This document shows, piece after piece, positions 40,306 to 41,511 of a stretch of 64,000 nucleotides of DNA (its first letter is position 1; every line of letters begins with the position of its first letter). Location: contig JANLYO010000195.1 in the NCBI GenBank assembly GCA_031365665.1, positions 5,026-69,025 on the forward strand, read 5' to 3'. Made by a program: the position numbers and the translations under genes. The stretch is from Rhodoferax sp. Its GTDB lineage: Bacteria; Pseudomonadota; Gammaproteobacteria; Burkholderiales; Burkholderiaceae_C. The notes under the pieces are model-generated. The model saw only the letters and a list, made by a program, of their open reading frames with translations, made no database searches and was not told the origin of the DNA.

Positions 40306-41511
40306 TTAAAAAGCGGCGTACAGACGCTGGCGGTTGAAGACGCCGTGCGGGTCGAATTCGGTTTTGAGCCTTTGTGCAATCTGTAAATTTATATTTGACA
40401 CATCAATACCAAAGTTTTTTTGATAGTTAGGCCTCGTATCTTCTGAATAGTTTGTAATAAATAACGAAGTATTTTTGATTGTATTTTTATCTATATTTGT
40501 TATAAAATCTATTTCAGACGATGGTATTTTGACCCACCGCAAGGCCCCATGCCACTCCATGAGTTGCGGCCATGGCAGCGCCAGCACCGGTGTGGTTTGC
40601 GCCACACTCATGCGCCACACAGCAAAGTCCTGTTGCGGCGCGGCGCTGAAAAATGGCAGCTTCAAGTCGCGGCACTGCTGCCATTCGATGGCGGCCTGGG
40701 TGTTGTCCATCACCTGGCCACCCAACGTGCCGGTCATCGTTTGAATGGCCGCCTGCACAGCCGCTTTGGCGCCGCGCAAACGCAGATGCAGCCGGCCCGG
40801 ACCCGTGGGCGCGCGGGCGTCAAGCGCCTGCCAGCGGCTCGCATTGAGTGGCAGGGGCTGGCCGCCCCAGAGGTTGAGTTGCCGCAGCGCGGTGGCCTGG
40901 TCCATCTGAAACACCAGCGTGGCTTCGGCGGGCGACACGGGCAAGACCTTGAGCGATACCTCGGTGATCAGCCCCAGCGTGCCCATGGCGCCCACCATCA
41001 GGCGCGACACGTCATAACCCGCCACGTTTTTCATCACCGTGCCGCCAAAACGCAGCAACTCGGCGCGGCCATTGAGCAGTTCGAGCCCCAGCACGTAGTC
41101 GCGCACGCCGCCCACGCTGGCCCGTGCAGGGCCTGCCAGCCCGGCGGCCACCATGCCGCCGATGGTCGCCGTCTGGTTGCCAAAATGGGGCGGCTCGAAG
41201 GGAAGGCACTGGCCTTTTTCAGCCAGCGCCGCTTCCAGCTCGGCCAGAGGTGTGCCGGCGCGCACCGTCACCACGAGTTCGCTGGGCTCGTAATTGACGA
41301 TGCCACGCAAGGGCGTCGTGTCCAGCAAATCGCCTTGTCTTGCGTGAAGCTGGCGCAAGCCGGAGGGCACGTAAAAATCTTTGCTGCCGCCGCCGCGTAT
41401 CCGCAACGATGTTTGGTTGGCAGCGGCGCTTTTCACCTGATCGGTGATGCGCTGCAGCGCGGCGCTGTACGCGCCGGGAGCGCCTGAAGATTTATCGGCG
41501 TTGTCAGGCAC
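40306..41511 (-). CDS. glcE: glycolate oxidase FAD-binding subunit, with an AT-rich repeat-derived segment near the C-terminus
   Basis: FAD-binding PCMH-type N-terminal domain (RIRGGGSKDFY...) and C-terminal ...RLKTEFDPHGVFNRQRLY. Residues ~PSSEIDFITNIDKNT...SNINLQIAQ are encoded by AT-rich DNA. Confidence 0.75.
   Translation of the reverse strand: MPDNADKSSGAPGAYSAALQRITDQVKSAAANQTSLRIRGGGSKDFYVPSGLRQLHARQGDLLDTTPLRGIVNYEPSELVVTVRAGTPLAELEAALAEKGQCLPFEPPHFGNQTATIGGMVAAGLAGPARASVGGVRDYVLGLELLNGRAELLRFGGTVMKNVAGYDVSRLMVGAMGTLGLITEVSLKVLPVSPAEATLVFQMDQATALRQLNLWGGQPLPLNASRWQALDARAPTGPGRLHLRLRGAKAAVQAAIQTMTGTLGGQVMDNTQAAIEWQQCRDLKLPFFSAAPQQDFAVWRMSVAQTTPVLALPWPQLMEWHGALRWVKIPSSEIDFITNIDKNTIKNTSLFITNYSEDTRPNYQKNFGIDVSNINLQIAQRLKTEFDPHGVFNRQRLYAAF
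40371..40530 (-). repeat. AT-rich patch inside glcE containing repeat copy E (core 40426-40457, sense orientation)
   Basis: The minus-strand core TTACAAACTATTCAGAAGATACGAGGCCTAAC matches copy B at 24 of 32 positions. There is a sharp composition drop relative to the rest of the gene. Confidence 0.65.

Follow-up and report, generated by a model that had tools for sequence, protein, structure and literature searches.

An AT-rich patch in glcE of Rhodoferax contains a translated copy of a short interspersed repeat of the Comamonadaceae

glcE and its AT-rich patch

The window analyzed here is a stretch of 64,000 nt from a Rhodoferax sp. genome (assembly GCA_031365665.1, contig JANLYO010000195.1). 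It contains glcE, which carries an AT-rich patch near its 3' end. The coding sequence is on the minus strand (40306 to 41511) and encodes 401 amino acids from a putative GTG start. The protein matches the NCBIfam GlcE equivalog model (NF008439) with 441.6 bits, above the curated cutoff of 284, and Pfam FAD_binding_4 (PF01565) with 68 bits. It was modeled with the two-domain flavoprotein fold of the VAO/PCMH family. The glcF gene (39002 to 40279, minus strand; NCBIfam GlcF, 670.7 bits) begins 26 nt past the stop codon of glcE. In the lineage of the window, glcD does not adjoin these genes.

The patch is 159 nt long (40372 to 40530, minus strand) and has a GC content of 25%. The original prediction, made from the letters alone, had described such a segment followed directly by the canonical C terminus, and both parts were found. 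The patch encodes residues 328 to 380, which are codons 10 to 62 from the conserved EWHG motif. GC contents at the three codon positions (GC1/GC2/GC3) are 0.26/0.28/0.19, and the gene overall has 66% GC. In 100-nt windows, the GC content is 0.25 to 0.34 at about 40350 to 40550 versus 0.57 to 0.75 on either side. The translation is uninterrupted and joins the conserved C-terminal codons (RLKTEFDPHGVFNRQRLYAAF) and stop (40306 to 40371, minus strand) directly in frame. These codons contain invariant L..FDP.G.F columns, with a ratio of nonsynonymous to synonymous differences (pN/pS) of 0.14 to 0.42.

The patch has three parts, all on the minus strand. The core (40403 to 40472) corresponds to columns 6 to 75 of a repeat profile, and the statistically supported match within it is 40427 to 40469. 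The upstream flank (40473 to 40530) has a GC content of 0.19 and does not match the profile. It occupies a native position, the helix and GG-x-A-T region of relatives, and aligns without gaps to their ...APLDAA..AGGNAT. The downstream flank (40372 to 40402; GC content, 0.26) does not match the profile either. Only the central 45 to 70 nt of the approximately 160 nt is detectably repeat-derived.

The same 401-amino-acid protein is encoded on contigs from two independently assembled runs (SRR20217206 and SRR20217216), and the patch is therefore not an assembly artifact. Patches of this kind are also present in six more lineages that come from other studies.

The repeat family in the window

The patch contains the 32-mer TTACAAACTATTCAGAAGATACGAGGCCTAAC (40426 to 40457, minus strand), which agrees at 24 positions with an intergenic repeat copy that starts at 17174. 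This count, first made by hand, was exact. It is also unique: elsewhere in the window, on both strands, every site stays below 22 of 32. Repeat finding retrieved family copies at 17162, 29261, 33587, 50109, 52328, and 54942. It paired the patch with the copy at 17168 to 17211 in inverted orientation over 44 nt with 75% identity. When only the seven intergenic copies of the window were used to build a profile, the patch scored 11.9 bits. None of 2,000 dinucleotide-preserving shuffles scored as high, the best reaching 9.3 bits. The likeness to the repeat family thus holds in a shuffle-controlled comparison.

Six dispersed copies on the plus strand were retrieved by both repeat finding and profile search. 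The copy closest to the glcE core is at 17150 to 17230. Two start at the stop codon of a gene: the copy at 29248 to 29329 follows a thiolase gene (28017 to 29255) and is itself convergent with alr, and the copy at 50096 to 50177 follows a Mg-chelatase-like gene (48510 to 50105). Another, at 33575 to 33655, lies 63 nt past the stop of a glutathione peroxidase gene. The others are at 52317 to 52385 and 54930 to 55008. A seventh, more diverged copy (1264 to 1330, plus strand) was retrieved by profile search about 45 nt past the stop of an aldolase gene (344 to 1219).

A second in-frame copy (50915 to 51006, plus strand) lies in the central loop of a major facilitator superfamily (MFS) transporter gene (50315 to 51718; Pfam MFS_1). 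It scored 16.8 bits, which was not reached in 2,000 shuffles. It is read in the same frame as the glcE copy (..V-A-F-D-T-H-N-T-R-A..). In the window, the glcE copy is the only one on the minus strand; the MFS copy and the seven intergenic ones lie on the plus strand, in keeping with how the neighboring genes are oriented.

About 100 nt downstream of three of the longer dispersed copies there is a related palindrome, ATACCCAAnTTGGGTAT or ACCCCAAAATGGGT (29355 to 29385, 33679 to 33709, and 50188 to 50218). It may be a terminator or operator of a longer variant of the element. The sole insertion sequence of the window (17252 to 18335) is 22 nt from the dispersed copy at 17150 to 17230. It belongs to the IS1595 family and encodes a 311-amino-acid transposase (17294 to 18229, minus strand). 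Its 40-nt terminal inverted repeats (AAGTTAACTTGCAAGGTGGGG...) are 95% complementary, and its ends are unrelated to the element.

Occurrence in glcE across the family

A homologue search retrieved GlcE proteins of 373 to 499 amino acids. Alignment of these orthologues placed the patch without gaps against the native C-terminal region, and the DNA of relatives revealed three states at one site. In state 0, represented by P0019 from a Rhodoferax, the tail from EWHG to the end has 80 codons and is GC-rich throughout. In state 1, represented by P0007, the tail has 83 codons, and an AT-rich core of about 60 nt lies between native GC-rich flanks (..AGGNATVF). State 2 comprises the window, P0002 to P0006, and L009. 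These tails also have 83 codons, of which about 160 nt is AT-rich. The P0007 core reads ATA TCT AAC TAT GCA TTC CCT ACA AGG GCT ACA GGC CAA TTT. It scored 17.9 bits against the intergenic profile of the window, which was not reached in 2,000 shuffles. This core and an intergenic copy from its own genome (L004, 6439 to 6504) share the lineage-specific variants CTAACTATGCAT and ACAAGGGCT.

We sampled 80 named Comamonadaceae glcE loci from species-representative genomes, with loci of up to 20 kb per genome and 1.34 Mb in total including the window. Iteration of the profile on copies outside glcE gave 137 hits at an E value of ≤0.05. The profile was then rebuilt from 57 strictly intergenic copies to avoid circularity, with a match threshold of an E value of ≤1e-3. 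It matched 45 of 85 glcE genes, and all 45 matches were in a single register in which profile column 8 is the first base of tail codon 30 after EWHG. The window core has ATT ACA at codons 34 and 35 and shares this codon register. The event is not confined to one genome, since the same codon is occupied in more than half of these genes.

The genera with a glcE copy include Rhodoferax, Polaromonas, Acidovorax, Paracidovorax, Diaphorobacter, Curvibacter, Giesbergeria, and "Candidatus Aalborgicola." Neither a glcE copy nor dispersed copies were found in the Ramlibacter, Hydrogenophaga, and Delftia loci. Their glcE linker is shorter and GC-rich (GGC GGC CAC GCC ACG CTG TTC CGC...). HGW-Betaproteobacteria-3 has three dispersed copies and a native glcE, which indicates that dispersed copies and the glcE copy are separable.

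In Polaromonas and its allies, a dispersed copy is located right at the glcF stop codon (L034, 4570; L019, 12289; L088, 6378; L020, 13640; L060, 7850; L031, 14966; L051, 12379; L059, 8047). The glcEF pair thus has a copy behind glcF in addition to the translated one in glcE.

Other features of these genes were also recorded. In the window (41517 to 45961) and in L003, L005, and L006, glcE-glcF is not preceded by glcD. The neighbors there are an SMP-30/gluconolactonase-like gene, an aldose epimerase gene, a methyltransferase-like gene, and amtB/P-II. The genome of P0007 has a methyltransferase gene between glcE and glcF. Rhodoferax-like GlcE proteins often contain large low-complexity insertions rich in G, A, T, and S (alignment columns 148 to 180 and 320 to 390), which bring their lengths up to 487 amino acids. 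P0014 (499 amino acids) contains an internal duplication of about 100 residues.

Nucleotide retention and within-genome likeness

The element codons of glcE run against the codon usage of the gene. In the 45 matching genes, GC3 is 0.36 at the element codons versus 0.80 in the rest of the gene. In glcE genes without a match, GC3 is 0.79 at the same codons versus 0.85 in the rest. Rare codons recur at fixed positions. GCT, which makes up 9% of alanine codons elsewhere in the same genes, is found at tail codon 30 in 42 of the 45 genes, at codon 35 in 32, and at codon 43 in 33. Codon 34 is ATA, GTA, or AGA in 44 of 45 genes; elsewhere, ATA makes up 7% of isoleucine codons, GTA makes up 5% of valine codons, and AGA and AGG together make up 2% of arginine codons. 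CGA (3% of arginine codons elsewhere) is found at codon 46 in 15 of 45. Element-free taxa have GCC ACG CTG TTC CGC at the same place. Ordinary conserved sequence had been expected to show the same peptide encoded by GC-rich codons in relatives. GC-rich relatives do have a related peptide (F-[IV]-A...T-R-A-x-G-x-F), which is instead encoded by AT-rich, rare codons that match the element.

GlcE proteins diverge by 40 to 45% among the genera with a glcE copy, and synonymous differences are 0.4 to 0.6 already within the clade of the window. At such divergence, the shared rare codons are not explicable by common ancestry alone. They need either selection on the nucleotides or recurrent copying from other copies of the element.

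Recurrent copying is supported by the likeness of glcE copies to the dispersed copies of their own genomes. Identity is 0.54 to own-genome copies versus 0.48 to those of other genomes (0 of 5,000 permutations). With the AT-rich clade left out, the values are 0.597 versus 0.545 ± 0.008 (0 of 5,000 permutations). The glcE copy of L032 is 80% identical to one of its own dispersed copies. The glcE copy of the window is 64% identical to an own-genome copy, and the 95th percentile for copies from other genomes is 49%.

Probable replacement of codons in glcE, alr, and an MFS transporter gene

The possibility that the patch had replaced native sequence rather than been added to it was supported. The tail has 83 codons here; relatives that lack the element have 76 to 81, and most that carry it have 80. 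The element reading coincides at both ends with native residues, A-T-L-F and G-R-F, which are also present in element-free taxa.

The alanine racemase gene (alr) and the MFS gene behave alike. Among the other hits inside ORFs, the strongest were in alr. The strictly intergenic profile matched alr in five species with 25.7 to 33.7 bits, none of which was reached in 300 shuffles each. The other 27 alr genes did not match this profile. The element-like stretches are in L058 (20199 to 20334; gene, 19510 to 20604), L024 (12324 to 12457), L076 (19087 to 19223), L032 (10799 to 10931), and L081 (17996 to 18132). We considered whether these hits were false positives absorbed during profile iteration, and the persistence of all five with the strictly intergenic profile argues against this. 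The site is the universally conserved ..K-I-I-[AG]-V-x-x-x-x-x-G-x-x-V-G-Y-G, and its length is unchanged. The native alr reads CTG GCC TCC AAA ATC ATC GGC GTG CAG CAG CTG .. GGC GAC ACC GTG GGC TAC GGC. The five species have CTT GCT GCA AAA ATC ATA GCT GTT CGC GCA ATA .. GGG GCT AGC GTT GGA TAT GGC. This recoding toward the element also changes residues, for example, G-D-T to R-A-S. A simple insertion in alr was rejected, as the motif is native and conserved and the length is the same. The alr gene of the window (29447 to 30526, minus strand) is of the native type, with a dispersed copy just past its stop.

For the MFS gene, L008 has a native loop of nearly the same length opposite the element-like codons in the alignment, with two more residues in the window. 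Beside this copy (50980 to 51120), the central loop has about 45 extra low-complexity residues (PSSVSDQAAGLAPESTPPSRHASIPAARSDTTTATPVKPPATS) that are absent from the L008 orthologue.

On balance, glcE has thus gained 0 to 7 codons and the MFS gene 2 residues, and alr is unchanged in length. Templated replacement at partly similar sites accounts for all three genes, and cut-and-paste insertion does not.

Anatomy and placement of the element

The element is about 70 nt long with the approximate consensus TTGCTAT-N7-ATAGCTGnTnnCGCAnATT..ACGAGGGCTAGAGCCCGATTTGGC. The 66 copies outside glcE align over 77 columns with zero gaps. The conserved blocks are TTGCTAT, ATAGCT (in which A22 and G23 are invariant), CGC, GGGCTAGAG, and ATTT. 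A TAG at columns 21 to 23 closes one frame, and a TAG at columns 49 to 51 closes a second. This leaves a single readable frame, and glcE, the MFS gene, and alr all use it. The density is about one element per 7 to 12 kb in the DNA sampled, and every copy found was single.

The upstream gene is on the same strand as the element in 36 of 44 intergenic copies. In those 36, with three exceptions, the upstream stop falls between -19 and +33 nt relative to the 5' end of the element, and in many cases it is a TAG of the element itself. When its two neighbors are co-directional, the element is in sense orientation in 20 cases and in antisense orientation in 2. Of 26 co-directional cases, 14 have the start of the downstream gene at -24 to +10 nt relative to the 3' end of the element. 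With this placement, the element would almost always be transcribed in sense, as an mRNA tail or an intercistronic spacer.

RNAalifold did not find a consensus structure among the 66 copies. The sole inverted repeat is internal, with 5 bp (GCTAT/ATAGC; columns 8 to 12 and 20 to 24); it is invariant and paired in 82% of copies. A candidate second helix was paired in 52%, with covariation that 101 of 500 shuffles equaled or surpassed, and support for a small 3' hairpin was marginal. A structured RNA with covarying arms was rejected, since its helices were not above the controls. The alignment does not contain complementary termini, and terminal inverted repeats are therefore absent. At the gathering thresholds of Rfam 15, the window contained only an S-adenosylhomocysteine (SAH) riboswitch, and there was no match to the element. 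A permissive Rfam scan of 10.5 kb of L020 with dispersed and glcE copies retrieved nothing. Within the patch, one weak promoter-like site was found, compared with 0.5 ± 0.6 expected, and no terminator. An internal promoter or terminator in the patch was thus not significant.

The element is apparently undescribed. Keyword and sequence-string searches of the literature did not retrieve a description, which does not prove that none exists. One match is on a Rhodoferax antarcticus plasmid, where it is not annotated.

Two other features of the window were noted. The SAH riboswitch (RF01057, 55.3 bits; 60360 to 60455, minus strand) is upstream of a long open reading frame (ORF) at 57481 to 60348. 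Tandem paralogous genes of about 311 amino acids (7043 to 7924 and 8603 to 9548) are 80 to 91% identical in DNA.

The clade of the window

In a GlcE tree with the variable tail masked, the five state 2 genes for which DNA was available form one clade, sister to the 83-codon state 1 gene. Members are 67 to 76% identical in protein. The upstream flank has a GC content of 0.18 to 0.32 in this clade and 0.63 to 0.91 elsewhere. The element codons have 0.17 to 0.28, compared with 0.35 to 0.62 in profile-matching genes elsewhere. The downstream flank has 0.20 to 0.33 in the clade. The rest of the gene has 0.64 to 0.68 and is similar elsewhere. Dispersed copies of state 2 genomes are also AT-shifted, with a core GC content of 0.24 to 0.33 versus about 0.4 to 0.5. 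The flanks of the core in the five genes did not match either repeat profile. A tandem second copy or a longer element variant was rejected on these grounds as the source of the flanks. The proposal that the whole AT-rich segment is repeat-derived therefore stands for the core of 45 to 70 nt, which is an in-frame copy, and is not supported for the flanks.

Among the five lineages, the patch has a pN/pS of 0.66 to 1.11 and an amino acid identity of 15 to 42%. For comparison, pN/pS is 0.14 to 0.42 in the last 21 codons and 0.27 to 0.45 in the rest of the gene. Few residues are kept in the patch: F-I-[AST]-N, an R, an N, and I-Q. Nucleotide identity within the clade is 45 to 63%, and little is conserved outside the core. 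The coding frame is free of stops in all five lineages (P = 0.002 to 0.006 each for that composition), and the other frames contain 3 to 11 stops. All seven clade proteins have exactly 83 codons from EWHG to the end. The glcE gene of this clade is probably still functional.

A structure model was obtained from a deeper alignment after a first model (mean predicted local distance difference test [pLDDT], 58) was discarded as too poor. It has a pLDDT of 76.7 and a predicted template modeling (pTM) score of 0.76, and it resembles D-lactate dehydrogenases with a TM score of about 0.68. In the model, the upstream flank retains the strand, short helix, and strand arrangement. Confidence in the C-terminal half is lowest at residues 353 to 373, which lie in the stretch encoded by the element and directly behind it, and it recovers in the conserved terminal helix (374 to 386).

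Origin of the patch

The patch probably has two layers. One is the translated core of a family-wide element that arrived by replacement, and the other is clade-specific AT-rich flanks under a constraint on length. The event is ancient and family-wide, and the surrounding AT-richness is clade-specific and secondary. The original prediction was largely right. It had the kind of event right (repeat-derived, in frame, and a replacement) and its extent and age wrong. The core would have arrived in an early family member by templated, gene-conversion-like replacement of native codons rather than by clean insertion. The glcE copy may then have kept exchanging sequence with dispersed copies, which we infer from its resemblance to own-genome copies and from its running against the codon bias of the gene. 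In the clade of the window, the segment would have lost most of its amino acid constraint. What remained may be the constraint to be an open spacer of fixed length between the cap domain and the conserved terminal helix. AT-biased mutation could then have taken the approximately 160 nt to 25% GC.

Several points weigh against this history. The match of the window core is modest (11.9 bits; E value of 0.02 to 0.19 depending on database size), and the core was not detected by the GC-richer family-wide profile. The position statistics come from crude gene calls (a filter on ORF length and GC3) that missed some genes. Native-like residues at both ends fit recombination at microhomology, and glcE itself may be the source copy or its site may have been hit repeatedly. 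Templated replacement is a proposed mechanism of spread. The patch, with a GC content of 0.25 (flanks, 0.19 and 0.26), is also below most short intergenic spacers (0.42 to 0.56). Only clearly short spacers were used for this comparison, since the gene caller missed genes, including glcE, and pooled intergenic values are unreliable. AT-biased drift alone may therefore be insufficient, and there may be selection for AT-richness itself in the patch.

Such selection would mean that the glcE copy, and in the clade of the window the whole 160-nt patch, acts at the DNA or RNA level and is tolerated by the protein. It could serve mRNA processing or stability, bind a trans-acting factor that also recognizes the dispersed copies, or provide an internal start affecting glcF. 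The retention of nucleotides against codon bias across genera would fit this, as would the sense orientation and stop codon association of dispersed copies and an AT-richness beyond most intergenic spacers. Covariation of glcE copies with own-genome copies is also what sites coevolving with a factor would show. We nevertheless regard it as unlikely, given a patch that has no significant promoter-like or terminator-like signal and an element that, beyond an invariant 5-bp inverted repeat, has no consensus RNA structure. Rfam gave no match, nucleotide identity of the patch within the clade is low, and little is conserved outside the core. A proposal of wider scope, which we put forward tentatively and consider possible rather than probable, is that an undescribed, sense-oriented, stop codon-associated element of about 70 nt spreads and is maintained in the Comamonadaceae by homing-like or gene-conversion-like templated replacement, with a DNA- or RNA-level role for the glcE copy. 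Templated replacement would allow the element to overwrite housekeeping codons, as in glcE across the family, alr in at least five species, and the MFS transporter gene.

The remaining explanations are far less credible. If a mobile miniature element resembling the Rickettsia palindromic ones had recently inserted in frame in this lineage, the abrupt drop in GC content, the intact frame, and the likeness to an intergenic repeat would be explained. Such an insertion is very improbable for a site occupied in the same register in 45 of 85 glcE genes across genera, with no block of added residues, flanks that are not element-derived, and an element that is not a long palindrome. The patch is moreover common to a clade with only 67 to 76% protein identity. 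Import by recombination, in which a foreign AT-rich glcE fragment replaced the native 3' region, agrees with the sharp composition boundaries and equal length. We give it equally little credence: no AT-rich donor-like GlcE was among the best 120 homologues, state 2 genes are GC-rich outside the patch, and the patch is near-neutral and very different between clade members, with a core that matches the repeats of the host genome itself. The likeness to the repeat could in principle be one of chance or composition in ordinary conserved coding sequence, as many members of the family have a related peptide (F-[IV]-A..T-R-A.G.F) and AT-rich sequences match one another easily. The shuffles (0 of 2,000), the matching of 45 genes in a single register by an intergenic-only profile, and the use of rare codons all support real homology, and element-free taxa have a different, shorter, GC-rich linker. 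Together with an assembly artifact, against which the identical protein from independent assemblies stands, this explanation has next to no probability.

Comparison with known repeats

Rickettsia palindromic elements (RPE), attributed to Ogata and coworkers in 2000, reportedly occur both between genes and in frame inside protein genes. They are palindromes of 100 to 150 bp that add about 30 to 50 residues, in AT-rich obligate intracellular alphaproteobacteria. They are mentioned in a review (PMC10969869) of MITEs, the miniature inverted-repeat transposable elements. The element described here is likewise an interspersed repeat that is found both in intergenic regions and in frame, where it is translated and tolerated by the host protein. 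This applies to the seven intergenic copies, glcE, and the MFS gene of the window, and to 45 glcE and 5 alr genes elsewhere. The analogy to RPE drawn in the original prediction is thus apt for a repeat translated inside a gene. It does not extend to a long palindrome or 30 to 50 added residues. The element is about 70 nt long, has only a 5-bp internal inverted repeat, and replaces codons (0 to +7 net). It is also found in GC-rich, free-living betaproteobacteria, with an orientation bias and at stop codons. It differs from MITEs in having no terminal inverted repeats.

Mycobacterial interspersed repetitive units (MIRU) are said, after work by Supply and coworkers in 1997, to be short repeats in transcribed intercistronic regions that follow the orientation of flanking genes and abut or overlap stop and start codons. 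They form tandem arrays of variable copy number, and we know of no report of MIRU as family-wide in-frame residents of housekeeping genes. The element is similarly in sense between genes, with stop or start codons of its neighbors inside or abutting it. Its copies are single, however, and some are translated inside genes.

The beta-proteobacterial repeat element (BRE) is about 90 bp long and is found in Polaromonas, Rhodoferax, Acidovorax, Delftia, and Bordetella (Hot et al. 2011, PMC3110155). Most of its copies are in intergenic regions, but others extend over the end of an ORF or are wholly within coding sequences (PMC3110155). The taxa, the intergenic majority, and the presence of some copies in coding sequence are the same for the element. 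Their sequences are unrelated (...GCCGCCGGGCGCCCAAGGCAAAAAGCCCCCTCGGGGGGCAGCAAGC..., 69% GC for BRE), and BRE forms tandem arrays of variable copy number, whereas the element copies are single. BRE also occurs in Delftia, and the element was not found in the Delftia loci. The identity of the two was rejected, as the published BRE sequences do not resemble the element consensus.

Repetitive extragenic palindromic (REP) sequences, the bacterial interspersed mosaic elements (BIME), and the enterobacterial repetitive intergenic consensus (ERIC) are short repeats that follow genes in transcribed regions of enterobacteria. They are thought to affect the fate of mRNA and are homogenized within genomes. 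REPs are by definition extragenic; they are imperfect palindromes, rich in GC, that carry a conserved 5' GTAG and are mobilized by REP-associated tyrosine (RAYT) transposases. The element shares with REP/BIME and ERIC its short length, its position after genes, its transcription, and its homogenization within genomes. It differs from REPs in being AT-richer than its genome, in having no extended palindrome, and in occurring inside ORFs, although [A/G]TAGC is present.

DNA uptake sequences (uptake signal sequences [USS] and DNA uptake sequences [DUS]) of the Pasteurellaceae and Neisseriaceae are 9 to 12 nt long, or about 30 nt with flanks, with about one per kb. They spread through coding regions by nucleotide replacement and are found in permissive frames and after genes. 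The element resembles them in spreading by replacement rather than insertion. It differs in its length of about 70 nt and its density of one per 7 to 12 kb, and nothing ties it to competence.

Significance

To our knowledge, most examples of short interspersed repeats translated within bacterial genes come from Rickettsia, and they are regarded there as insertions. The element described here shows age and maintenance, as the codons it fills in a metabolic gene are the same throughout a family and its nucleotides are kept against codon bias. It shows concerted evolution, as the glcE copy changes alongside the dispersed copies of its own genome. It also replaces a universally conserved alanine racemase motif at constant length. 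If the tentative proposal of a maintained element is true, retention against codon bias implies a dedicated maintenance mechanism or a trans-acting factor that recognizes the element. In practical terms, such patches should not be taken for assembly errors, foreign DNA, or pseudogenes. The glcE genes provide a natural series, from a GC-rich native linker through an element core to a 160-nt AT-rich patch, for the question of how large a part of a protein may become a spacer that evolves almost freely. If our reading is true, dispersed repeats can rewrite coding sequence by templated replacement and produce protein variation that standard annotation does not flag.

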